64,000 bases of DNA, from assembly GCA_049515895.1 (NCBI GenBank), contig JBEKTQ010000014.1, positions 1 through 64,000 of the forward strand, read 5' to 3'. The notes beneath the pieces were generated by a model. That model did no database searches and was not told where the DNA came from. It was given only the letters and a program-made list of their open reading frames with translations. Source of the DNA: Candidatus Bathyarchaeia archaeon. GTDB lineage: Archaea; Thermoproteota; Bathyarchaeia; Bathyarchaeales; Bathycorpusculaceae. Positions 21,285-49,416 of this stretch are shown one piece after another. A program made the translations under genes and the position numbers. Position 1 is the first letter of the stretch, and every line of letters begins with the position of its first letter.

Positions 21285-21599
21285 ATGGGTGGGTCTGGTC
21301 ACGATCATGGCGGTAGAGGAGAAAACAGAAGTGGTTTCCAGACTCGCAGTAGGGAACATGACCGACGCGAAGCATTGCGGGCTTTGGACAAAGCTACACG
21401 TGATAACCGAGCTAACCAATTGAACCCAACGCATTCGGCTTATCATCTAAGTGGGCTTTCTAATGAACAGTTTGGCTCGGCTTCTAAGATGACTATTGAG
21501 GATGCTCGCAGGATTCAATCAAGTTCTGACCGAGAAGACAAGAATGAAGATTTCAAGTCAAGAGCTATGTCTGCTGCCGCCAAGAATGAGAACAAATGA
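21285..21599 (+). CDS. small hydrophilic protein with SMP/LEA-like C-terminus
   Basis: DNRANQLNP motif and MTIEDARRIQS..DFKSRAMSAAAKN. Confidence 0.65.
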   Translation: MGGSGHDHGGRGENRSGFQTRSREHDRREALRALDKATRDNRANQLNPTHSAYHLSGLSNEQFGSASKMTIEDARRIQSSSDREDKNEDFKSRAMSAAAKNENK

Positions 21600-36399: not shown

Positions 36400-37545
36400 A
36401 TGAATCAAATAACTGACAACTCTTTTGAGTTGAGCATGCGACAGAACCAAAATCAGCTTGAGTGCAAACTAACAAAAACCCCTTGCATATCTATGACTGT
36501 AGCTTCAAAGGAATTCTTCCTAGAACAAAAAACACTTTCAAGCATAATAGATTCCTACAGCACCGTTGCTAAGCTGGTTGGAAAAAAGAAGACAAGAAAT
36601 ATAGATTTTTTTGAAGCTCTATCGATTTTGGGCGCTGAAATCGGCTTTGGGATCGCAAATATTTTTGAACATTTTGGATTAATGTACACCAAAAGGCGTA
36701 TCAACCTAACACTAAAACTGGATGATTGGACTCGAAGAATCCCATGGGAACTAGCCATGGTCCCAGATTACCCAGAACAACTGCTCTGCGAAAGATTCAA
36801 TATTGGAAGAGCAATGGATGTTGAATGTAAAAATCAATGGGAAACAGCTCCTAACACGAAAACAAGTAAACGGAGTTTAAAATCATTAGTTGTCGGACTA
36901 AATTACACGAAGAATTCAATATACACTCCATTAGATCGGTCAGAAGAAGATGCTAAAGCAGTACACGAATACTTGACAAAATTCTCAAAAAGCAAGAATG
37001 GAAGAGACTTGGAAGTTCTTCCAAAACTAATAGGTGGAAACGCAAGAAAAGAGACATTGGAAAAACGGTTAAAAGAAGGAATAACTATGTTTCATTTTTC
37101 TGGGCATGGAGAACTTTACAGAAATATTGGCAAAATAATTCTAGCTAATGATAAACAATTAACAACTAAGGAACTCAGTTGCATATTCTATAACAATCAA
37201 ACTAGGGCACCGACATTTTCTTTCATGAACGCATGCGAGACCTGCCTTCAAAAAAATGGTGAATCGGACATCCATGATTGGGCCCTCGCAATGGCTACAT
37301 ATGGCGCTAGGGCTCTAATCGGTACTTTTTGGAGCGTTATGGATGAAGATGCAACCGATTTTTCATTAGCATTCTATAGGTATTTCTTGAAGGAAGGAAA
37401 GACGATAGGCGATTCTGTACGGAGAGCAAGACTCTTTGTTAAGGATAAGAAAACTGAAGGAAACGATTTAGACCCCATGGTCACTTGGTCCGCATTCGTG
37501 CTGTATGGTCCTCCTATGTTAAAAGCAAGAGATATTTTGGTATAA
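36400..37545 (+). CDS. CHAT (caspase-like) domain protein
   Basis: IPWEL, FHFSGHG (His), MNACET (Cys), W..FVLYG. Confidence 0.85.
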   Translation: MNQITDNSFELSMRQNQNQLECKLTKTPCISMTVASKEFFLEQKTLSSIIDSYSTVAKLVGKKKTRNIDFFEALSILGAEIGFGIANIFEHFGLMYTKRRINLTLKLDDWTRRIPWELAMVPDYPEQLLCERFNIGRAMDVECKNQWETAPNTKTSKRSLKSLVVGLNYTKNSIYTPLDRSEEDAKAVHEYLTKFSKSKNGRDLEVLPKLIGGNARKETLEKRLKEGITMFHFSGHGELYRNIGKIILANDKQLTTKELSCIFYNNQTRAPTFSFMNACETCLQKNGESDIHDWALAMATYGARALIGTFWSVMDEDATDFSLAFYRYFLKEGKTIGDSVRRARLFVKDKKTEGNDLDPMVTWSAFVLYGPPMLKARDILV

Positions 37546-37728
37546 AGTAAGTTCTGTTCGTAAAAGATAAAATTCCCAAGCACGGCGCGCCGCGCTAAAA
37601 TGTAGAGGTTTTTGGGCTAAGGAACAAATTTCATCGTACGTTTGCCTAACCATCCAAAGAGCTAAACGGAGTGCGCTGCCGCAATCCCTACAAAAACATA
37701 TATACTATTAGCCTGAAACCTCGTTGCT

Positions 37729-38844
37729 ATGACAATAATTGTCGCAGTGAAGTTCTCCAACGGAGTAGTTGTTGCAACAGATAGTAGGTCCATTTATGGA
37801 GAAGCACAATATGTACGAGACACGGAAAGAAAGATAGATACCTTAAACGATAAAGTTGCCGTCACTTCTTCAGGAATCAGGGCAGCGTCTAATAGAATAT
37901 TCAAAGAGCTTAGATCTTATGTGGAAGCAAATGAGAATCTAACTTTTGACGAAATTGTTAGTGAATGTGAAGATCTCATGAGGAACTTTTATAAAAGGTA
38001 CAGTGGTCGTCTGAAGGAAGAGTTAGAGGACGGTTGGAGTTTTGAGCTGTTTTCCTCGGAAAGAATGGTTATTATTGAATCTGATGGAGTTGCTGACGAA
38101 GAAGAAAGTTATCTTTGTGATGGAAGTGGTACTCCCTATGCTGAGTACATTCTGCGACAGCGTTACAAGCCAGATCTTACAGAACAAGAATGCAAAGAAC
38201 TTGCCTGCTATGTTGTTCTTCAAACATCTCTGATAGACCCTAATGTCGGAGGACCCGTAAATCTGTGCGTTCTAAAAGAAATAGGTCTTAAGCACTTAAC
38301 ACGCCCTGAAATAGACGAGATTGTCGAGAATATCAAAGAAACTCCTATAGAACAACAAATAAAAATTCAAAGTTTAGTTGAGGAAATTGTTGAGGAAAGA
38401 CGATGGATTAATGACTTGTTTAAAAACAAATTCAAGACAGCCTTATTCAAACAGGATGAATACGCCATTTCGCAGATTCAAAAAACTTGCAAAAACGAAA
38501 ACGATTTTACCAACAGAATATCGGCGCTAGCGGTATTGATAGACCGAACGGAATCATTAGATGTTGATGACAGACTTGGAGAAAAAAACAAGGCTTCCAT
38601 CAATCGGTTGCAAGTCTTCGCAGATAAAAATATGCCCAAGCTAAATCCTGAGTGTATTAAAAATCTAAGAGAAATCTACACGCTTAGAAGCCACAAGATG
38701 CCAATTCACGAAGATGATCCAAGATTAATGCAGATACTCCTTCAATGGGAATACAAGATACCACCTAACTGGGGAAATCTTTGGGAGAAAGCTCTCACAA
38801 AATATCGGGACAGCCTAAAGATGTTGAAAGCAGCTGTTCAGTGA
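37729..38844 (+). CDS. proteasome beta-like Ntn hydrolase fused to a helical HEPN-like C-terminal domain
   Basis: Thr1 after Met, Asp17 (ATDSR), Lys34, GSG, D..VGG; C-terminal LRSHKMPIH. Confidence 0.75.
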   Translation: MTIIVAVKFSNGVVVATDSRSIYGEAQYVRDTERKIDTLNDKVAVTSSGIRAASNRIFKELRSYVEANENLTFDEIVSECEDLMRNFYKRYSGRLKEELEDGWSFELFSSERMVIIESDGVADEEESYLCDGSGTPYAEYILRQRYKPDLTEQECKELACYVVLQTSLIDPNVGGPVNLCVLKEIGLKHLTRPEIDEIVENIKETPIEQQIKIQSLVEEIVEERRWINDLFKNKFKTALFKQDEYAISQIQKTCKNENDFTNRISALAVLIDRTESLDVDDRLGEKNKASINRLQVFADKNMPKLNPECIKNLREIYTLRSHKMPIHEDDPRLMQILLQWEYKIPPNWGNLWEKALTKYRDSLKMLKAAVQ

Positions 38845-39006: not shown

Positions 39007-40101
39007 TTGGCTAAAAAACATGTATTGCTCGTCGAACCTGACTATTATACTCAATTCCCGCCGCTAGGACTGCTAAAGCTTTCCACTTTTTATAAGAATC
39101 AAGGTTCAACTACAGAATTGATTCGTGGAACTAAGGATTGTAGCCGGGAACCTGATTTAATTTACATTACCAGTCTTTTCACGTGGTCTTGGGAACCAGT
39201 GTGGAAAGCAGTTAGATTCTACTCCACCTCATTTCCAAGTTCAGACCTATGGCTGGGTGGACTTTACGCTTCTTTGATGCCCGAGCATGCAGCACTAAGT
39301 GGAGTTCACACTGACCACGTTTTCAAAGGAATATTTCCTGAAGCTGAAAATCTTCGTCCAGATTATAGTCTTGTACCAGAATGGAATCAAAAGGAAAAAG
39401 CGAGTATTCTCTTCTCATCCAGAGGTTGCATAAGAAACTGTGGATTCTGCGCAGTTCCACAATTGGAAGGCAAAATAGTTACTAACAGCTCACAAATTAG
39501 TGATTTGCTTTATCCTGAACACACTAAGATCATATTATTTGACAACAATTTTTTGGCTTCTTCAAAATGGGAAAGCACTCTTGAGGAGATTAAGAGTCTC
39601 GATTTGAGAGTGGATTTCAATCAAGGTTTGGATGCTAGACTGATAACACCTTTAGTTGCTAAGAAATTGGCAAAGGTCAAAATTGACAAGGTAATTAGAT
39701 TGTCGTATGACAATTGCCAAACTGGAACAAATGTTGAGAAAGCAATTAAGCTTCTCAAATCTGAAGGAATTAATGGAAAAAGCATACTCGTGTACACGCT
39801 ATTCAATTTCACAGACGATCCACAGGACTTTTTTGAACGCATGAAAGATGTTCTCAAATGGGGCGCAGTCTGTTACCCGATGCGTTATGAGCCTTTGCGA
39901 ACACTTTTCAAAAACAAATATGTTTCTTCAAAATGGACAGCTAACGAACTTGAAGCAATTCAGAGAGCACGCAGAGTAATCGGTTTTGGAGGAGCTTTTG
40001 CACCTCATAAGGGCATGCTAAACGTAAAAGTGGAAAACTGTAACACTTTCGAAAAAGCTTTCAAGGAGTTTATGAATCCAGAGGCGAAGATAGAAGAATG
40101 A
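39007..40101 (+). CDS. radical SAM protein with B12-binding-like N-terminus
   Basis: SRGCIRNCGFC (CxxxCxxC); PPLGLLKL, GGLYASL; DNN; DFNQGLD. Confidence 0.85.
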   Translation: MAKKHVLLVEPDYYTQFPPLGLLKLSTFYKNQGSTTELIRGTKDCSREPDLIYITSLFTWSWEPVWKAVRFYSTSFPSSDLWLGGLYASLMPEHAALSGVHTDHVFKGIFPEAENLRPDYSLVPEWNQKEKASILFSSRGCIRNCGFCAVPQLEGKIVTNSSQISDLLYPEHTKIILFDNNFLASSKWESTLEEIKSLDLRVDFNQGLDARLITPLVAKKLAKVKIDKVIRLSYDNCQTGTNVEKAIKLLKSEGINGKSILVYTLFNFTDDPQDFFERMKDVLKWGAVCYPMRYEPLRTLFKNKYVSSKWTANELEAIQRARRVIGFGGAFAPHKGMLNVKVENCNTFEKAFKEFMNPEAKIEE

Positions 40102-41408
40102 TTTGTACATGTTGCGGTTTTGAAATTCAAGGTCAAACTCACCAAATCGAAAATGGAGAAAAACAAGTTTGTGACAAATGTTGGAATAATCCTTCTTTCT
40201 TTTTTTCTGAAAAAGCAAAGACGGACACTCGTTTCAAACTGCTTTCCGAAATTGCTGTACAAAATCAAAACAGCCCAAAAACAATCGAAATAAGTGTTCT
40301 AAAATTATCTCAGAAAAACATTGATCTTTACATTGGAAAAATGAAATCCAAGGATATATTGCAACTCTACGAAGTTGACAAGTTTAAAGATGAGGAACTT
40401 GAAGGCTATCAACGTGAACAATATGAAGAAAGGACATCAGAACTAATAGAATACCTTACTGAATGTCCCATTGCCGTAATGCCAAGCCTCTTTGTCAGTC
40501 TGAGGAATGCGAAATTTGTAGCATCGAAAGACGATTTTGGTATTCTCCGAATTCCAAAGGTCAGAGGTGCAATTTGGATAATCGACGGTCAACATAGAGT
40601 AGGAGGATTTGAAAAGCTTTATCAGAAGTTTACTTATCAGCGAAAACCAAATGAAATTTCGACCGAAACATTTGCAACACTCATGGATTATGAACTCCCA
40701 ATAGTTTTCATAGATACGCAAAAAGCAGCAGTAAAAACGAATACCTTGAAAATGGGAAAAAGCGAAATAATGCCAGAAGACCTTGAGAGGGCAATATTTT
40801 TTGTTGTCAACAAGACTCAGAAAGGAATTAGCTCTTCGCTAAAAGATGCGTTACTTTACCGCCTGAATGTTAGCGGAATTGATGGAATTCCAGCTTTAAG
40901 AAAAGAAAAGTGGAGAATTCAAGCTGCACACGTTGGTATTTCTTTAAATCGAGAGCTTGATTCACCTCTTAAAGGTTTGATTAATATTGGTGGAAAAGCG
41001 GGAACAAGAAAGCCAATCCAGTTGAACTCTTTTGTTTCCTCCTTAGAACTGCTTTTCAACGACAAGAATTTTGCGAAATTGGAATATAACAAGCAAGTCC
41101 AGTTTTTAAAATTCTATTGGGAATCCCTGAGAAAAAATGTTCCTCAAGCATTCGATTTAGCATCTTGGAGAGATTATATGCTTCTAAAAGCTATTGGAGT
41201 TTATTGTGTTCATTGGCTTGCGTTAGATGTCTTCAACATCTGCTTAACGAACGAACAGCGTTTTGATGAGCAGGAGACTTTAGATAAAATTGTTAGCAAG
41301 ATGAGTGATTTTGACTGGAAAACACAAACGTCGCTATTGTCAACATTGGGCGGTCTCAAAGGTGCTAAGCGGGGCTACGAGAAAATCAAACTTTGTTTAA
41401 CAACCTGA
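40098..41408 (+). CDS. DGQHR (DndB-like) protein with N-terminal Zn finger
   Basis: YQR, IDGQHR, FFVVNKTQK; CTCC..CDKC; 4-bp overlap with the radical SAM gene. Confidence 0.9.
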   Translation: MICTCCGFEIQGQTHQIENGEKQVCDKCWNNPSFFFSEKAKTDTRFKLLSEIAVQNQNSPKTIEISVLKLSQKNIDLYIGKMKSKDILQLYEVDKFKDEELEGYQREQYEERTSELIEYLTECPIAVMPSLFVSLRNAKFVASKDDFGILRIPKVRGAIWIIDGQHRVGGFEKLYQKFTYQRKPNEISTETFATLMDYELPIVFIDTQKAAVKTNTLKMGKSEIMPEDLERAIFFVVNKTQKGISSSLKDALLYRLNVSGIDGIPALRKEKWRIQAAHVGISLNRELDSPLKGLINIGGKAGTRKPIQLNSFVSSLELLFNDKNFAKLEYNKQVQFLKFYWESLRKNVPQAFDLASWRDYMLLKAIGVYCVHWLALDVFNICLTNEQRFDEQETLDKIVSKMSDFDWKTQTSLLSTLGGLKGAKRGYEKIKLCLTT

Positions 41409-41511
41409 CAACCTAAAATCCTCTTTCTTTTCAGAAAACTGGTAACACATAATAGATGTTATATATCAAGTCTGCCAACTGTTAGACAACCGCGAGGTTA
41501 CGACCTAAGAA

Positions 41512-43614
41512 ATGAGCCTGAAGGGTCTTTCTCTTAAGAAATCTTACAATTCAGATACCGACAATATCCTTCAAGATTTCTACATTCGATCTCTTTCCGT
41601 TTCAATAGAATATAAAAGACTAACAGGTTTCTTCTCGTCAACGACCCTCGCTTTAGCGGCAAAGGGGATGACTGCCTTTATTCGTAATGGCGGGACGATG
41701 AAACTGGTTACAGGTGCACGTTTTCAAGAAGCAGATATTCGAGCAATAAAAGAATCCCTTGAATCTCCTGAAGAAATTTTGAAAGAAGAAATGTTAAAAG
41801 AGCTTAACACTCTCGAAGACAAATTCATAAAGGATCATGTACGTGCTTTAGGTTGGATGATTGTTAACAAGCGATTAAAAATAAAAGTTGCAATAGTCCT
41901 CTCAGATGATGGGTATCCTCTTGAGTCGAGAAAAGTGGAGAAACAAGGTATATTCCATCAAAAAGTGGGAATATTGGAAGATTTTGAAGGAGATATGGTT
42001 TCTTTCAGCGGTTCAGACAACGAAAGTGCACACGGTTGGCAAAAAAACATTGAAGAATTCAAAGTTTTCAGAAGCTGGGAAACAGGTGAGTCGGAGTACT
42101 TTCAATCCGATTTGGAAAAATTCAATCGGTTCTGGGATGGAAACGCTATCAGAACAAAAATCATCGACATCCCAAAAGCAATTGAGGAGAAGCTTATCCA
42201 AATTGCTCCTAAAAACTTTGAAGAATTAGACTTAGAGCAACCTGAAGTAGTTCAAAGTAACGTTGCTGAACCTAAACTTAGACCTTATCAAGTAAAGGCA
42301 GTCGGGGATTGGATAAACAATGGCTACTATGGAATTTTTGAAATGGCTACAGGAACAGGCAAGACCTTCACCGCATTAGCATGCATGGATACACTGATGA
42401 AAAAAGAAAACAAAATAGTCACAGTAATCAGTGCACCTTACAATCATCTATGCGAGCAATGGATAGCTGAAACTGACAAATTCGGCATCAAGACCGTTAA
42501 ATTAGTCTGCGATTCCACTGAACCTCATTGGAAGGACAAACTAGTCGATAACCTGATTGACCTTGAAAATGGAGTGATTGAAAACCTGACGATTTACACT
42601 ACTCATAACACATTTTCTTCAACGGATTTTACGGAAATAGTTAGAGAAAACAAGTTAGATAACGCTAATCTGAAGTTCTTTCTTATTGTCGATGAGGTGC
42701 ATGGAATAGGAGCACCAATTAGGCGTAATGGGCTTATTGACGAATACGATTTTCGATTAGGACTCAGTGCTACTCCGAAAAGATGGTTTGATTACGAGGG
42801 AACTGATAGAATATTTGATTACTTTAAAGATGTAGTCTTTAGTTTTCCGTTGAAAGATGCCATTCAAGCTGGTTTTCTAACACCATATGTGTACAAACCA
42901 TTTTTTGCATTTTTAACAGAAAAAGAAATGAAAAGTTATGAAGAGGAGACTCGTAAAGTCTCAAGAGCATATTATGCTTCGAGGAATGACGTTGAAAGAG
43001 ACGAGGCTTATACTCTACTATGTATAAAACGACAACGTATCGTTCGAAATGCTGAAAACAAGCTGATTGAGTTCCAAAAAATATTGGATAAAATTGGTTC
43101 TTTGCAAAATTGCCTAATTTACAGTTCACCCCAGCAAATCAAGATTGTCCAAGAAACTTTAAACAAAAGAAATATCATTCAACACAAGTTCACACAGCAG
43201 GAAGGTACAAAACCTGAAAGTAAGTTTGAAGGACTTTCCGAGAGAGATTTTCTAATCAAAAGATTTTCAGAGGGGTTCTATCAGGCATTAGTCTCTATGA
43301 AGTGCCTTGATGAAGGAGTCGATGTACCTCCAGCTCGGGTTGCAATTATCTTAGATAACTCAGGTAATCCACGAGAGTACATTCAACGAAGAGGGCGAGT
43401 CTTGCGTCTTTTTCCTGGAAAGTCAATAGCTACAATTTACGATATAATTGTTGAGCCGAGATTAAATAACGCAACCCCAATTGAACTTAAGGAACTTGAA
43501 AAAAAGATAGTTTTAAAAGAACTTCAGAGATACAGAGACTTCGCTGAATCCTCCAATAATGTTGACGAATGCTTGAGGACGTTAAATGAAATAGAAGCAG
43601 CATATGGCATTTGA
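41512..43614 (+). CDS. PLD + SF2 helicase, PbeA-like
   Basis: FHQKVG..GSDNES; ATGTGKT, DEVH, SAT, LDEGVDVP, QRRGRVLR. Confidence 0.85.
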   Translation: MSLKGLSLKKSYNSDTDNILQDFYIRSLSVSIEYKRLTGFFSSTTLALAAKGMTAFIRNGGTMKLVTGARFQEADIRAIKESLESPEEILKEEMLKELNTLEDKFIKDHVRALGWMIVNKRLKIKVAIVLSDDGYPLESRKVEKQGIFHQKVGILEDFEGDMVSFSGSDNESAHGWQKNIEEFKVFRSWETGESEYFQSDLEKFNRFWDGNAIRTKIIDIPKAIEEKLIQIAPKNFEELDLEQPEVVQSNVAEPKLRPYQVKAVGDWINNGYYGIFEMATGTGKTFTALACMDTLMKKENKIVTVISAPYNHLCEQWIAETDKFGIKTVKLVCDSTEPHWKDKLVDNLIDLENGVIENLTIYTTHNTFSSTDFTEIVRENKLDNANLKFFLIVDEVHGIGAPIRRNGLIDEYDFRLGLSATPKRWFDYEGTDRIFDYFKDVVFSFPLKDAIQAGFLTPYVYKPFFAFLTEKEMKSYEEETRKVSRAYYASRNDVERDEAYTLLCIKRQRIVRNAENKLIEFQKILDKIGSLQNCLIYSSPQQIKIVQETLNKRNIIQHKFTQQEGTKPESKFEGLSERDFLIKRFSEGFYQALVSMKCLDEGVDVPPARVAIILDNSGNPREYIQRRGRVLRLFPGKSIATIYDIIVEPRLNNATPIELKELEKKIVLKELQRYRDFAESSNNVDECLRTLNEIEAAYGI

Positions 43615-43629
43615 TAAGAGAGAGAGAAA

Positions 43630-43827
43630 ATGTCGTCAGTAAATAGAAAGATAATAAACCAAATTGAAAATAGCGACTACACGCCTGAAATCAAAGAACT
43701 GCTAAACTCCTTACTACAAATAGAAGCCAGAATCGCCGAAGACAAGAAACCTCACTATTCGGAAGATTATGACAGAGTGATAAAAAACCTTGCCAAGAAA
43801 CGAGGGTATCGGGAGGATGAAGAGTGA
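43630..43827 (+). CDS. small protein, PbeB-like
   Basis: 65 aa, between the helicase and the SMC-like ATPase; overlaps the next gene. Confidence 0.7.
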   Translation: MSSVNRKIINQIENSDYTPEIKELLNSLLQIEARIAEDKKPHYSEDYDRVIKNLAKKRGYREDEE

Positions 43828-45812
43828 ATCTCGACTATCTTCAAATGAAAAATTTCCGACAATATCAGGACGCTCGAATAGAGTTCTCTCAATCTCCAAC
43901 AAGAAATTTCACAATTATTCAAGGGGTAATGGGGGCTGGAAAAACTAACATTCTAAATGCTGTAACTTGGTGTCTCTTTGGAGACGAGAAACACATTGAT
44001 AAGAAATACAAAGGGCTTCCAATTGTTAATACTTCAGCCCTTTCAAAATGCGAGGGAAAAGTTTGCGAAGTCAAAGTTGAACTGCAAATTATTCAGAGCG
44101 ATGGAAAGCGAATTAGAGTAACCAGATGTGAGAATTGGAGAGAGCAAAACAGTAACTTATCAAAAATTAGTATGCAACATGACTTTTCTATAATGAGAGA
44201 AACTGGAAGGGATTGGGTTGGACCAATTTATGGGGATGATGCGCAATATATCGTTGATAGCCTAATTCCTCCTTCGATTGAGGAATACTTCTTTTTTGAC
44301 GGCGAACGAATGAATGATTACTTCAGGGAAAATACTGGTAAGGACATCAAAAGTGCAGTTTTTAAAATTTCTCAATTAGAACTTTGCGAATCGCTAATTT
44401 CACACCTATCGGCAAGAAGAAGTGAGTATCTAAGACTATCAAGAGGACTAAGCTCGAAAGCAAATGATATTAAAATGATTGTTGAAACCCTCGAGAAGTC
44501 GCAAGAATCAGACAAAGAACGTTTGAAAGAACTATTGAGAGATCAAGCAGAAGCACAACGAATAGAAAAAGAATACAGTGATAAGCTACGAAATTCATCG
44601 CTTGAAAGAATTGAGAGCTTAGAAGAACGCCGAGTTGGTTTGGAAGACGATTTAGAGCGTATCGCTGATGACATCGAGGAACTAGAAAAAGAGAAAGTGC
44701 AATTCCTTCATAAGAATATGCCAATAATCTTTGCTTTTGATGCCCTTACAAAAACTAAATCGCTGATAGAAGGGCGAAAAGAAGCTGGAATGATACCTCC
44801 GCCAGTTAAGACAGTTTTTATCGACAGCTTACTTAAAAAAGGAAAATGCATTTGCGGAAGTGACATAACCGCCAAAGACGAGCTTTCTTGCACAAGAAGA
44901 AAAAGAGTTGAGGCTTTTCTAAGGCAAAGTGAATTGTCGGAAATGAGCAATGACCTAATCAACTGCAATGTTCAGATTCAAGCTATGATTGACCAAGTCA
45001 AAGTTTTTCCAGATACTTCAGTACAGTTAGGTAAAAGATTAAGAGAACTCCAAACACTTAAGGACACAAAAAACACGGACGTTGAAAAAATAAAGGTAGA
45101 AATTTCGCAAAGCAATGCGGAGAATATTAAAGAATGGGGAAAAGAAAGAGACAAATATAATGAGAAAAAAATCAAAATAGGAAATGAAGCGGCCATTCTC
45201 AATAGTACCATTGGCAGACGTGACAACATAATTAGAGCAAGAACGAGTGAATTTACAAGGGAACTGAAGAAAGAGGCAAGGCACAACTCCCTTGTTAGTC
45301 TAATGACTTTTTGTGAAGAAGGAATACATGCCGCACAAGAAGTCAGAGATGCTATTATGAAAAATGTCAAAGATGAGATATGTAAGAAAACAAGTGAGCA
45401 ATTTCTCTCACTGATTTGGAAAAAAGGAACCTACAATGGCGTTGTAATTGATGATGACTACAATATCTCAGTGCCCCATGTCTCTGGGCGAGAAGGGCTG
45501 GGAACACTTTCGGCTGGGGAACGGCAAGTTTGTGCCTTATCATTCATGGCGGCGTTGAATAGCGTTTCTGGTTTTGACGTTCCAATCATAATAGACACAC
45601 CTTTAGCAAGAATATCTAATGAACCGACAAGAAGCATTGCTGAGAATCTTCCTAATTATCTGCCTAACAAACAAGTTTCATTGCTAGTAACAGACAAGGA
45701 GTATACCCCTGAAGTAAAAGAAACCTTAAGCAAAGTAGTCGGTAAAACATACATAATAAATTTCATAGAAAAAGACTATGGTGGTTTATCGGAGCTGGTG
45801 TTTCAATCATGA
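43824..45812 (+). CDS. DndD/SMC-like ABC ATPase with CxC hook, PbeC-like
   Basis: NFRQY, GVMGAGKT, FFFDGE, coiled coil with CICG, LSAGE, IIDTP. Confidence 0.88.
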   Translation: MNLDYLQMKNFRQYQDARIEFSQSPTRNFTIIQGVMGAGKTNILNAVTWCLFGDEKHIDKKYKGLPIVNTSALSKCEGKVCEVKVELQIIQSDGKRIRVTRCENWREQNSNLSKISMQHDFSIMRETGRDWVGPIYGDDAQYIVDSLIPPSIEEYFFFDGERMNDYFRENTGKDIKSAVFKISQLELCESLISHLSARRSEYLRLSRGLSSKANDIKMIVETLEKSQESDKERLKELLRDQAEAQRIEKEYSDKLRNSSLERIESLEERRVGLEDDLERIADDIEELEKEKVQFLHKNMPIIFAFDALTKTKSLIEGRKEAGMIPPPVKTVFIDSLLKKGKCICGSDITAKDELSCTRRKRVEAFLRQSELSEMSNDLINCNVQIQAMIDQVKVFPDTSVQLGKRLRELQTLKDTKNTDVEKIKVEISQSNAENIKEWGKERDKYNEKKIKIGNEAAILNSTIGRRDNIIRARTSEFTRELKKEARHNSLVSLMTFCEEGIHAAQEVRDAIMKNVKDEICKKTSEQFLSLIWKKGTYNGVVIDDDYNISVPHVSGREGLGTLSAGERQVCALSFMAALNSVSGFDVPIIIDTPLARISNEPTRSIAENLPNYLPNKQVSLLVTDKEYTPEVKETLSKVVGKTYIINFIEKDYGGLSELVFQS

Positions 45813-46753
45813 GCGAAAGAAAAAAGCCAGACAGATTTTATGTGGAAAAGAAGGATAGAGAAGACTGGAATAGACTCAAAGACAAAGACAGCCCATTTGC
45901 AGGTGCTGACAATAAAGATGTTTTCATAGCTGCAATGATGACAGGTTACTTTGAAAAAGCCGAATTTGAGCTTAAGACTAAAGACGGGTATTTCTTCGCA
46001 GACAATTTAAAGCCGCAGGAAGAGGCAATTGTAAAAGCTATTGCTGTTTCAAAAACTGGAAGTCTGAATGTTCTCCTTGACACTGAGAGAGTTTACGAAA
46101 TTGCTGAGCAGTATGCCACAGGAGGACTAAAAATCCTCAAAAACAAGGTCTTTAGCGGTGAATACGGGTCATACTCCAAAAAACTTGAAGCTGAATTACT
46201 CCGACAGTACACCAAGATTACCCAAAACGTACCTGCTCCTCCGACTGTTGATGAACTTGAAGGAATACCATTAATGGATCTAATTTTAGGAGGAGAAACA
46301 GACAAAGTAGAGCTCAAATCTTCATTCCTATGGGATTACCAAAAAAAGTCATACTCCAAAGAAGTCAAGATCGCTGTGGTTCGAGCAATTGCATCTTTCA
46401 TGAATTCAGAAGGTGGCTTTTTGATTATTGGAGTGGACAATGACCAAAATCCACTTGGATTAGAGCTTGACTGGACGCAATGTCAGAACAGTTTTGATGT
46501 GTGGAAGCAGACTCTTGCTAACGCTATAAACACTTACCTTGGAAGAATTAACAACATTCTTGTGACTAGCCGTAAAGAGAAATTTGAAGATAAAGACGTT
46601 GTAATACTGAGGATAAAGAAATCGCCACACCCTGTATATCTAACCTACGAAGACAAAAAACAGGATTTCTTCATACGGGGAGATGGTACGTCTCAGCAAT
46701 TGAGCATGAGCGATACAACTCAATATGTGCAGGAACATTGGAAAGATCAGTAG
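45809..46753 (+). CDS. DndE/PbeD-like N-domain fused to a Schlafen/AlbA_2 domain
   Basis: NKDVFIAAM..AEQYATGG; ETDKVELKSS..ASFMNSEGG..IGVDN. Confidence 0.75.
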   Translation: MSERKKPDRFYVEKKDREDWNRLKDKDSPFAGADNKDVFIAAMMTGYFEKAEFELKTKDGYFFADNLKPQEEAIVKAIAVSKTGSLNVLLDTERVYEIAEQYATGGLKILKNKVFSGEYGSYSKKLEAELLRQYTKITQNVPAPPTVDELEGIPLMDLILGGETDKVELKSSFLWDYQKKSYSKEVKIAVVRAIASFMNSEGGFLIIGVDNDQNPLGLELDWTQCQNSFDVWKQTLANAINTYLGRINNILVTSRKEKFEDKDVVILRIKKSPHPVYLTYEDKKQDFFIRGDGTSQQLSMSDTTQYVQEHWKDQ

Positions 46754-46879: not shown

Positions 46880-47605
46880 TTGATCTCCTTGAATAACTTC
46901 AAACCTGAAGACAAAGTGTTTCTAGCTGTCTTTGTTCTATTATTTGGGATTGTAATTCTCAATATTGCCACTGGCTACTTGGGCTTTCTGTTCCAATCCC
47001 CTTCTGGAGTGACTTCACCATTTGCAATAATATCGAGTGCTTCAATATTGTTCTGCTTTATTCTCTGGGGATTTGTAAAATTGACCAGAAACCAACTCAG
47101 AGATAAAAAACTCGGAGTTAAGGGCATTTCAAGCCTAATGTATGTTAAAACTGCGAAAATAATCGGTTTAAGAAAGCCATCGCTCCGCGGTTCAGTATTT
47201 ATTATAGGTTGCCTGATTGTCGGTGTTTTTGTGAATCTGTTTACTTTGTTGATTCTTGCGAGATTAGGTCTTGGTACACTTTACCGTGTAACTAACCCAA
47301 CTCTTTACACTTATGTTTCAAACCTTGTAGTTCCACCTATTTTTGAAGAGTTCATCTACAGAGGGATTTACCTAGGAGTATTCTTGAAACTGTTCGGAAG
47401 CAGCCCAAAATTCGCAATTATTGGTCTTATAATGTCCTCCTTTACCTTTGCATGGATTCACCCTTCGGAACCATTTGTTAAGTTGGTTGGAGGTTTCTTA
47501 TTAGGTTCTGTTTATTTGGTTCGTTGGAAGAAGAACATTGTCGCTTGTTCAGCAACGCATTTCGGGTTTAACTTGATTGGAACTTTCCTATTGTTAGTGA
47601 TTTGA
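46880..47605 (+). CDS. CPBP (CAAX/Abi) intramembrane metalloprotease
   Basis: EEFIYRG, FAWIH, HFGFN. Confidence 0.85.
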   Translation: MISLNNFKPEDKVFLAVFVLLFGIVILNIATGYLGFLFQSPSGVTSPFAIISSASILFCFILWGFVKLTRNQLRDKKLGVKGISSLMYVKTAKIIGLRKPSLRGSVFIIGCLIVGVFVNLFTLLILARLGLGTLYRVTNPTLYTYVSNLVVPPIFEEFIYRGIYLGVFLKLFGSSPKFAIIGLIMSSFTFAWIHPSEPFVKLVGGFLLGSVYLVRWKKNIVACSATHFGFNLIGTFLLLVI

Positions 47606-47654: not shown

Positions 47655-48122
47655 TCACAAAGAAGAAAGAAGCGTATAAACAGTTAAGGCAATGATTATG
47701 GAATAGAGTGCAATAAACATTATCGGACACCATTTTTCAGTAGAAGCTAAACCTTTACGCTTTCCCGAATAGTTTCTTTCTTCAAATTTGAACACGCTTG
47801 CTGGCATCGATTGCTCAAGTTCATGAATTACTTTAAACTTAGCTGCGTTCAACTCTTTGTAAGATGCTATACTTTGAATCCAAACCACAGAGATTATTAT
47901 TCCCATCACCGACAAAAGGATAAAGACAGCATGTTGATTAATAATTGTTAGATATCCAGCTATACCCAAAACGATTGAGCTTAGAGTAAGATAGAACTTG
48001 TTTGATTCAAGCCTTTTTGAAGTCACATCAAGAGAGGTTTCCACATAGAGTTTGTACTGTTCAAGCAAATGCTCCTGAAGGTGTTCTCCATAGTTTTTGT
48101 TTATGAGTTCATCGCTTGCCAA
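47655..48122 (-). CDS. small multi-TM putative pore effector
   Basis: LLEQYKLYVE..R..N.FYL, 2 TM, W..Y..LN.AKF.VI..LE, third TM. Confidence 0.7.
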   Translation of the reverse strand: MASDELINKNYGEHLQEHLLEQYKLYVETSLDVTSKRLESNKFYLTLSSIVLGIAGYLTIINQHAVFILLSVMGIIISVVWIQSIASYKELNAAKFKVIHELEQSMPASVFKFEERNYSGKRKGLASTEKWCPIMFIALYSIIIALTVYTLLSSL

Positions 48123-48602
48123 CTAGTCATTCTCCAACTCATTCTGTATTGCGTTTAAGTCCCAATTTATGACCTTCGCATGGTTGTCTTTGCATGGTTG
48201 AGGAATCTTGTGGTTTTCATCTCGATAAATTCTAACGCAGACAACCTTTTTGTTTAGTTCATAGGCTTTGTTGATTTCCCAATTAACTGCTTCTCTTTGG
48301 TGAGTTTCAGGTCCGACCATAACAATGACAACAGAAGTGCGATTAATTCGATCAGTACATTGTGTTTTCCACTTTTCGTCGAAAGGTTCTTTGACAGAAT
48401 AGTCTGTGAATTGAATGTCTGATTGTTCATCTTTGGCTTGCTGCCTCAACAGGTTGACTTGCGCTTCATCTTCAACATGAAAGCTAATGAAAACTCGGGG
48501 TTTAGGGGTTCTTTCGTTATGGTCAGCATAGTCGTCCAATGTTTTGCTTTTTCCTGATGAAGATACGTGTGATTTTCGGAAACCACGACCTCCTCCACCC
48601 AT
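48123..48602 (-). CDS. ThsB/MTH538-like TIR domain with Gly-rich leader
   Basis: RVFISF, FTDYS, VIVMVG, VNWEI (catalytic Glu); N-terminus MGGGGRG. Confidence 0.85.
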   Translation of the reverse strand: MGGGGRGFRKSHVSSSGKSKTLDDYADHNERTPKPRVFISFHVEDEAQVNLLRQQAKDEQSDIQFTDYSVKEPFDEKWKTQCTDRINRTSVVIVMVGPETHQREAVNWEINKAYELNKKVVCVRIYRDENHKIPQPCKDNHAKVINWDLNAIQNELEND

Positions 48603-48603
48603 G

Positions 48604-49416
48604 TCAGTTCCCCTCCAGTAATGTCTTCTGTAGCCTCAAGTTCTTTATGTTGTTGCAAAGCTGCGCAAAGTTTTCTGTTATTACTTGTGCGTTGTAGCCC
48701 CCAGTGTATTTAGTCTGTTTTGTTCCAACAAATTTCCATCCATTTAATGCAGCAACGAAATGGGCGGAAGTTACAAATCTATCAGCAAATGAATACTCTT
48801 GTAGCCTTTTTTGAGAACTGAATCCATACAAGATTAGTTTTTCAGCATTCTTACGTATTGCCAACGAAAGCGTTCTAGCTTGTCTAATCATTGACCGATT
48901 TCCATTCCTGAAGAAGTCGGATATGTGAAAAACGAATTCATCTATTCCATAAGACTTCAACTGTTTAAGGTGGTTTACCACTTGAGTTTCTGAACAGCCC
49001 TTGACTAAACCAATTGGTTTAACATTGGGAACGAGAGAAAGTAATTCTTCATTTTCCCTATGAATTCTTTTAAGCTCCTGTGAAGAAACAAGAAACTCAC
49101 CATCATAGGTTTCACCGTCAACGGTTGTAAAGGAATCTGGATGCAACGAGTTTATTGCTGTAGCATAGTTTGTAGGCTTAAGGTTTGCAATTAGCCCATC
49201 TTTCATTATTAATGAAAGAACAATCTGACCATTGAAATTCAAGAATTTGCGTAAGCCACCAGCAGACTCTATTTGCTTGAATGTTCCGTTAAACTGAAAC
49301 GAGGTTTTGGAAATCAAGTCCTGAAATCGAACTACAACAAGGTCGAGAGGAACAACTTTGAGAACCCCAAAAGTTTCCTTTGTGTCGAGCCTAATTATAG
49401 GACTTAGTGTTACCAT
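48604..49416 (-). CDS. divergent tRNA-guanine transglycosylase (TGT)-like/DUF4417-like TIM-barrel protein
   Basis: GGLRKFLNFNGQI resembles TGT GGLHKFMNWDGPI; TTVD; IGLVKG; LYG; no DSGG. Confidence 0.55.
   Translation of the reverse strand: MVTLSPIIRLDTKETFGVLKVVPLDLVVVRFQDLISKTSFQFNGTFKQIESAGGLRKFLNFNGQIVLSLIMKDGLIANLKPTNYATAINSLHPDSFTTVDGETYDGEFLVSSQELKRIHRENEELLSLVPNVKPIGLVKGCSETQVVNHLKQLKSYGIDEFVFHISDFFRNGNRSMIRQARTLSLAIRKNAEKLILYGFSSQKRLQEYSFADRFVTSAHFVAALNGWKFVGTKQTKYTGGYNAQVITENFAQLCNNIKNLRLQKTLLEGN

Follow-up and report, generated by a model that had tools for sequence, protein, structure and literature searches.

We describe a three-gene operon on the minus strand of a 64,000-nucleotide stretch of archaeal DNA (Candidatus Bathyarchaeia archaeon, assembly GCA_049515895.1, contig JBEKTQ010000014.1, positions 1 to 64,000; this whole stretch is called the window below). 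Its genes, designated A, B and C, encode a protein with the barrel fold of tRNA-guanine transglycosylases (TGTs), a TIR protein of the ThsB type with a glycine-rich N-terminal leader, and a membrane protein of the 8xMP/RipA family. The three-gene unit is a real, conserved system. On balance, we regard it as probable that it is a Thoeris-like anti-virus operon of archaea, in which the TGT-fold protein serves as a non-catalytic reader that docks the leader and gates a defence running from the TIR protein to the membrane effector. An earlier note on this DNA had proposed that the TGT-like protein may conjugate the leader to a base or nucleic acid by transglycosylation, or sense viral DNA modified with 7-deazaguanine.

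Operon organization and conservation

The genes are arranged head to tail in the order A, B, C. Gene A (48604..49416, minus strand, ATG start) codes for a 270-residue TGT-fold barrel. Gene B (48123..48602, minus strand, ATG start) codes for 159 residues, of which residues 1-35 form the leader (48498..48602, minus strand; MGGGGRGFRKSHV...TLDDY) and the rest the TIR domain (48123..48497, minus strand). Gene C (47655..48122, minus strand, TTG start) codes for the 155-residue membrane protein, the predicted effector. Genes A and B are separated by 1 nt (...GGGAAC TGA c ATG GGT GGA GGA GGT CGT GGT) and genes B and C by 0 nt (GAC TAG TTG GCA); the list of open reading frames (ORFs) and these junction letters bear out the spacing given in the earlier note.

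Scans of genomes and metagenomes yielded 32 loci, including the window's own contig (L008). According to ORF clustering, 31 of them contain the TGT-like gene, 25 the TIR gene and 19 the 8xMP gene. Metagenomes and genomes of Bathyarchaeia, Woesearchaeota and Methanosarcinales share the order TGT-like gene, leader protein, third gene. In loci where the identity of gene A to the window copy is only 35-74%, gene order and strand are kept, and adjacent genes overlap or lie 0-1 nt apart. The named genome matches came from Bathyarchaeia/Bathyarchaeota, Woesearchaeota and Methanosarcinales, one 'uncultured archaeon' and one entry labelled 'bacterium'; some TIR homologues were found in bacterial metagenome-assembled genomes (MAGs). 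The distribution is patchy, with one strong and two distant gene A matches in 401 genomes of the host class and none in 40 genomes of the host genus. Neither a scan of viral contigs nor a tblastn search of plasmids gave a relative of gene A.

Just upstream of the TGT-like gene, loci L003, L004, L005, L007, L023, L024, L026 and L029 carry a divergent regulator with CARF and winged-helix domains (Csa3/CasR-like), of which there is none in the window. One ORF cluster of such regulators is present in 7 loci and a second in 2, with PADLOC CARF3 matches of 1.6e-63 and 2e-63. This regulator may tie expression of the operon to a cyclic-nucleotide signal.

The glycine-rich leader and its coupling to the TGT-like gene

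The leader of gene B opens with MGGGGRG, and its 35 residues were modelled at a predicted local distance difference test score (pLDDT) of 42-50, in agreement with the disordered glycine leader that the earlier note had described. The family consensus reads M-G-G-G-x-R-G-x-R-x-x-Y-A, followed by a Ser/Gly-rich linker and (S/T)LDxY. An alignment of 23 TIR proteins shows no variation at M1, G2, G3 or R9 and conservation of 90% or more at G4, R6 and Y12.

The earlier note had suggested looking for glycine leaders downstream of gene A homologues, and they are indeed found there. In all 30 loci outside the window with a visible downstream start, which are homologous and do not represent 30 independent events, the gene following the TGT-like gene begins with ATG, GTG or TTG and then encodes GG[G/S], mostly continued by xRGxRxxY. 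The proteins of these loci and gene B of the window share the N-terminal extension starting M(G/S)G(G/S)GG that characterizes partners of the TGT-like protein Cap10. Within the host genome such a start is rare: of the 3857 ORFs that are 100 aa or longer, only 6, gene B among them, have a start codon leading into GG[G/S] no farther than 20 codons from the ORF start. Among the best 120 of 426 TIR homologues, 92 start with MGG[GS]. A further 15 show GG[GS] by residue 12, mostly owing to upstream start calls; the other 13 have neither, and several of these are short leaderless forms.

The leader is also found on proteins other than TIRs. At L010, the TGT-like gene is followed by a CD-NTase with an MGGG leader (PADLOC cyclase, 1.9e-121) and then by a Cap17-like effector. 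At L021 (1483-4020) and L032 (1-1391), it is followed by MGGG-leader proteins without a TIR or any recognizable domain; the leader protein of L021 is succeeded by a 98-aa ORF and a DUF4209/PADLOC PDC-S39-like protein. At L027 (4046-5413), two TIR genes precede the 8xMP gene, one with a leader and the second without. The leader tracks the TGT-like gene, not the TIR domain. Since its glycine codons vary among loci (GGT, GGA, GGC, GGG) and it also occurs on non-TIR proteins, its conservation goes beyond chance.

As the coupling extends across different catalytic domains, leader and barrel presumably interact. Recognition of a leader by a TGT-like protein, an idea already put forward in the earlier note, has a precedent in the type IV cyclic oligonucleotide-based anti-phage signalling system (CBASS). 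There, the QueC-like Cap9 conjugates 7-amido-7-deazaguanine to Gly2 of the CD-NTase CdnD, whose extension reads M(G/S)G(G/S)GG, and Cap10 binds the modified tail of CdnD in its base pocket (Wassarman et al., 10.1101/2025.04.06.647259). By analogy to this pair, we infer that the archaeal leader and barrel bind each other physically. A complex prediction for the TGT-like and TIR proteins gave a score of 0.18 against a mark of 0.32, which speaks neither for nor against binding.

In loci L003-L007, L020, L022-L024, L026 and L027, the TGT-like ORF is about 25 codons longer and overlaps the leader codons in another frame, so that the TGT frame reads WVGE where the TIR frame reads MGGG. A programmed frameshift fusing genes A and B was considered and set aside, as the window and other loci without the overlap keep the leader at the protein level. 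Elsewhere in the window, a 104-aa low-complexity ORF (21285-21599, plus strand) also starts with MGGSGHDHGGRG; it has no PADLOC match and no TGT-like neighbour.

Gene A has a TGT fold

Sequence libraries hardly recognize the gene A protein. It gave no match in Pfam (E ≤ 0.1) or NCBIfam and no sequence match in the PDB; the sole library match, with the PADLOC 'TGT' model, was weak (E 0.0078). PDB sequence searches with gene A, with a profile of 31 sequences or with two distant relatives returned nothing relevant. The AlphaFold2 model, based on this 31-sequence alignment of the window protein and 30 homologues, has a mean pLDDT of 93, and the top 50 Foldseek matches of the model in the PDB were all TGTs (best E 7.2e-9). 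The best structural match in VIA-align was the archaeal TGT (ArcTGT) 1iq8, with a Z score of 25.9 and a root mean square deviation of 2.4 over 258 of the 270 residues, followed by bacterial TGT (Z 21.6), DpdA (Z 21.4) and QTRT2 (Z 21.4). Generic TIM barrels scored about 16 and below, and Cap10 (9ntn_B), with Z 15.5, falls inside this range.

Relatives of gene A link it to the TGT superfamily as well. The PADLOC model PDLC00912 ('TGT') matches 12 of the 31 family members, and the Pfam TGT model (PF01702) weakly matches five of the 31 (best E 9.3e-5). An exhaustive profile search placed 215 representative clusters in the family at E ≤ 0.001, 89 of them at E ≤ 1e-30, and hhalign aligned a 138-sequence family profile with the TGT superfamily alignment over 254 columns (probability 98%, E 2.9e-13). 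The protein stops at residue 270 and has no C-terminal/PUA domains, and non-Cys residues face the Cys cluster of ArcTGT, leaving no Zn site. It resembles Cap10 in being a TGT-like TIM barrel without a Zn site and tRNA-binding surfaces. A connection to DUF4417 (PF14386), mentioned in the earlier note, was not supported: the domain was detected neither in the window protein (E ≤ 0.1) nor in the 31 aligned relatives (E ≤ 1), and one distant relative (P0145) reached 20.4 bits, below the cut-off of 28.9.

The structural similarity to DpdA, and atlas neighbours that include viral clusters with DpdA in 17% of their members, would also fit a DpdA-like nucleic-acid modifier that stands beside the TIR and 8xMP genes by chance and is unrelated to them in function. 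The preserved order, strand and tight spacing at 35-74% identity of gene A, the coupling to the leader in every locus with a visible start and the lack of gene A matches on viral contigs speak against this explanation, which we consider very improbable.

Two further observations concern TGT-like genes in related archaea. In the same class, L060 and L061 encode distant gene A relatives with a Cys-rich N-terminal extension, and the ORF downstream of the one in L061 starts with MGSG. At L065 (4450-6238), from the same genus, a TGT-like protein of another kind, 341 aa in length, keeps DSGG and follows ORFs of 258 and 1427 aa; these genes are unrelated to the operon and may form a DNA 7-deazaguanine-type module.

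Predicted replacement of the transfer residues in gene A

Residues of gene A were mapped onto ArcTGT by hhalign of the 138-sequence profile together with the DSSP strands of the model. Ser68 aligns to D95, the Asp of the DSG motif, and is Ser in 123 of the 138 sequences, consistent with the divergent, DSGG-lacking barrel noticed earlier. Ile195 aligns to the His of HLFG. Val215 aligns to the nucleophile D249, and the 138 sequences have Ile, Val, Ala, Ser, Met or a gap at this position but never Asp. Of D95, D130 and D249, D130 alone is retained: its equivalent Asp100 is Asp in 136 of 138 sequences. Lys139 (Lys in 117 of 138) aligns to the Gln of VQGG. Asp212 (Asp in 106 of 138) corresponds to the leading Asp of DxFD (DLFD in ArcTGT); its place at the N-terminus of strand 213-216 is off the catalytic face. 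The model strands 64-68, 95-97, 193-197 and 213-216 agree with the register of the profile, as does a conserved hairpin past strand 213-216, whose GT pair aligns to the GT of ArcTGT. An initial mapping by eye, with Asp73 as the DSG Asp and Asp212 as the nucleophile, was dropped in view of this alignment and register. A register obtained by hhalign from the 31-sequence profile, which had a probability of only 24.8% and differs near Asp73 and Asp100, was likewise superseded.

In Cap10, D73 and the nucleophile D248 are required for defence, and K154 reads the base (10.1101/2025.04.06.647259). Judged from the alignments, gene A lacks the Cap10 set of nucleophile Asp and His (D248/H226) and DS pair (D73/S74). 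Because nucleophile Asp, partner His and DSG Asp are all absent, the barrel appears to be a non-catalytic reader and not a transferase.

An active transglycosylase with a non-canonical nucleophile, conjugating the leader to a base or nucleic acid as the earlier note had it, would be in line with the intact TGT fold, with five acidic residues (Asp33, Asp73, Asp100, Glu102 and Asp212) that are invariant in the 31 sequences, and with the proposal that Cap10 transfers the modified CdnD tail to an unknown target (10.1101/2025.04.06.647259). The replacement of all three transfer residues, the position of Asp212 off the catalytic face and the lack of a Zn site and of C-terminal domains for RNA binding argue against it, and we judge such an activity improbable.

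Search for a writer of the leader

The flanks of L001-L032 were checked for a co-encoded counterpart of Cap9 by ORF clustering and a PP-loop motif scan. Clustering gave the three operon genes and, in some loci, the CARF regulator, and no conserved QueC-like or Ogg-like ORF in these flanks; the motif scan of the flanks gave a single, spurious antisense match. The window's contig has no match to PF06508. A Cap9 writer is not encoded with the operon.

Such a modification could also be introduced in trans: an unlinked QueC-family enzyme, e.g., the housekeeping QueC, would write 7-amido-7-deazaguanine on Gly2, and the barrel would bind the base as Cap10 does. The strong conservation of Asp100, the equivalent of the guanine-recognition Asp, is in keeping with this, as is that of Lys139, given that Cap10 uses a Lys (K154). 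The window's genome, moreover, encodes QueC on another contig (124.5 bits, the sole full-length match in a search in which the E. coli control was positive) and QueD, so that deazaguanylation in trans could take place there. QueC was scored as present if a match extended past the PP-loop portion at the N-terminus of the model, or spanned it with more than 27 bits. By this measure, none of five other host genomes, which are MAGs of unstated completeness, has QueC (only weak or N-terminal PP-loop matches were found) or QueD, and two of the five are also without any TGT. None of the loci has a conserved QueC-like gene nearby, and deletion of cap9 abolished the modification in E. coli, which possesses a QueC of its own (10.1101/2025.04.06.647259). 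We consider modification in trans unlikely, though less so than conjugation by the barrel itself.

TIR domain and membrane protein

The TIR domain of gene B belongs to the ThsB type. Residues 38-128 match ThsB_TIR (PF08937; E 4.8e-20, 72.3 bits, cut-off 21.2), and PADLOC ThsB models match with 2.7e-15 at best. The gene B profile matches the solved ThsB/TIR chains 8fz9, 6lhy, 9b7d and 8wcf, and the top Foldseek matches were B. cereus TIR and ThsB. Glu109, invariant in the 23-TIR alignment, corresponds in the solved ThsB chains to the Glu within 'YEI', which we take to be the catalytic E85. The retention of the catalytic Glu noted earlier is in agreement with this, and gene B shares with Thoeris a ThsB-type TIR carrying this residue. 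The TIR is predicted to be a signal-generating, NAD-processing enzyme.

Gene C matches 8xMP (PF24838) with 96.2 bits (cut-off 30, E 1.8e-27) over profile positions 1-134 of 136, in line with the small membrane protein expected from the letters, and its neighbour clusters in the atlas bear the automatic name 'RipA family octameric membrane protein'. Literature searches on 8xMP, octameric membrane proteins and RipA gave nothing useful. The link between the ThsB TIR and an effector is provided by adjacency in 19 loci and by the parallel with the cyclase-effector locus L010. Because the order in the window parallels L010 (TGT-like gene, leader-cyclase, effector), the TIR is probably the signal maker and the 8xMP protein the effector. 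The description of the pair as Thoeris 'without ThsA' misreads this layout: the 8xMP protein would fill the effector slot, and leaderless TIR and 8xMP pairs occur on bacterial plasmids.

Alternatively, the TIR could be an NAD-depleting toxin and the TGT-like protein its antitoxin, acting via the leader, with the 8xMP protein separate or accessory. TIR domains are NADase effectors in other systems according to a TIR survey (10.64898/2025.12.03.692087), and CdnD is inactive when bound to Cap10 (10.1101/2025.04.06.647259). Against this stand L010, where the leader is on a signal-making cyclase and a separate effector follows, which by parallel makes the leader-TIR a signal maker, the ThsB type of the gene B TIR, and the recurrence of TIR and 8xMP pairs without a TGT-like gene. 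There is little to recommend a toxin-antitoxin-like arrangement, in our view.

Proposed mechanism

In the mechanism we favour, the ThsB-type TIR would make a nucleotide-derived signal from NAD, and the 8xMP/RipA-family protein would act as a cell-damaging effector. Upon this core would sit a regulatory module consisting of the TIR leader of about 35 residues (MGGGxRGxRxxYA...LDxY) and the TGT-fold protein encoded upstream. The barrel would dock the leader, with Gly2, bared by removal of Met, threading towards the old nucleobase pocket in analogy to Cap10 and its CD-NTase. Docking might hold or prime the TIR until infection, the direction of regulation being our inference. Docking is preferred to conjugation because the transfer residues and the writer have both been lost.

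Several points weigh against this mechanism. The residue mapping rests on profile and secondary structure, with no 3D superposition, and has gaps near Ser68 and Asp212/Val215. The strongly conserved Asp73, Asp100, Lys139 and Tyr104 could form an active or base-binding site. The window's own genome encodes QueC, a possible writer, and QueD, and the genomes without QueC are MAGs. Finally, the 8xMP family also occurs outside defence contexts, and the RipA-like clusters are mostly bacterial. A narrower version, in which the barrel descends from ArcTGT, is catalytically dead and reads the unmodified glycine leader without involvement of 7-deazaguanine, is possible but rather doubtful.

Neighbouring genes in the window

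The flanks of the operon form a defence island with Mrr and PD-(D/E)XK nucleases and GmrSD; transposases lie farther out. At 36400-38844 (plus strand), a CHAT-domain protease (381 aa) is encoded directly 5' of a 371-aa protein with a proteasome-subunit domain, an unusual pair in a defence island. A Dnd/Pbe-like cluster follows at 39007-46753 (plus strand), comprising in order a 364-aa unknown protein, a DndB-like protein, a ResIII/DEAD helicase, PbeC/DndD (PADLOC 5.2e-132) and an AlbA_2 protein with a partial dnd_assoc_4 match. A membrane protein of the Rce1-like CAAX protease family (46880-47605, plus strand) is convergent with the 3' end of the operon.

Comparison with known systems

Gene A is like ArcTGT 1iq8 in its catalytic barrel and like QTRT2, the non-catalytic subunit according to its PDB entry title, in its TGT fold. 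It differs from ArcTGT in the absence of C-terminal/PUA domains and of a Zn cluster and in the replacement of two of the three key Asp residues.

The pairing of genes B and C has counterparts on bacterial plasmids of Haematospirillum (NZ_CP014526) and Polaromonas (NZ_MG869622), where TIR and 8xMP genes occur in the same order in defence or addiction-module neighbourhoods. Unlike gene B, the plasmid TIRs are leaderless proteins of 129 aa with the TIR domain from the start, and no TGT-like gene is annotated within 3 kb in the PLSDB gene table, which is incomplete. From the analysis, the 8xMP/RipA membrane family emerges as a candidate for a role in defence.

The TIR survey reports Thoeris operons that carry the genes cap9, cap10 and cap11 (10.64898/2025.12.03.692087). 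The Rhizobium plasmid NZ_CP104156 encodes a TIR-TGT fusion, Ogg, QueC (132.8 bits), a ThsB starting with MGGGSSGS and an Mrr-like protein. It resembles the window operon in placing an MGGG-leader ThsB, 40% identical to gene B over residues 17-156, beside a TGT-like protein and an effector. It differs in having QueC and Ogg, an Mrr-like effector instead of 8xMP and a TIR-TGT fusion in which DSG, His and FD are kept (motifs IDSG, FD(V), HVLG and SFDG). No Cap9-less variant of the Cap10/Thoeris systems was found described in the literature searched.

Among known systems, type IV CBASS and its Thoeris counterpart come closest to the archaeal operon. The operon shares with type IV CBASS a TGT fold without Zn- and tRNA-binding elements, encoded beside a signal-making enzyme with an M-G-G-(G/S) N-terminus, and at L010 a CBASS cyclase and a Cap17-like effector even stand behind the same TGT-like family. 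In contrast to type IV CBASS, Cap9 and Cap11 were found in none of the loci, most hosts have no detectable QueC/QueD, and the leader has its own RGxRxxY motif. Gene A also differs from Cap10 in its predicted Val, Ile and Ser in place of nucleophile Asp, partner His and DSG Asp, and in being structurally closer to ArcTGT (Z 25.9) than to Cap10 (Z 15.5).

According to the authors of the type IV CBASS study, neither the Cap10 target nor the way in which the CD-NTase is switched on is known yet (10.1101/2025.04.06.647259). The archaeal family would represent a natural version that keeps leader and TGT fold but has lost Cap9 (the writer), Cap11 (a putative eraser) and the transfer residues. It would split leader docking from nucleobase chemistry, offering a simpler system for the role of docking, and would extend regulation of the Cap10-leader type to archaeal Thoeris-like and CBASS-like operons. 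If the barrel does read an unmodified leader, the module would be a portable switch on archaeal TIR, CD-NTase and other signalling enzymes, and the kept base pocket (Asp100, Lys139, Tyr104) might also admit a purine or a viral 7-deazaguanine, whose competition with the leader would serve as an infection cue. Leader docking, and not nucleobase transfer, would then be the conserved core function of Cap10-type proteins.

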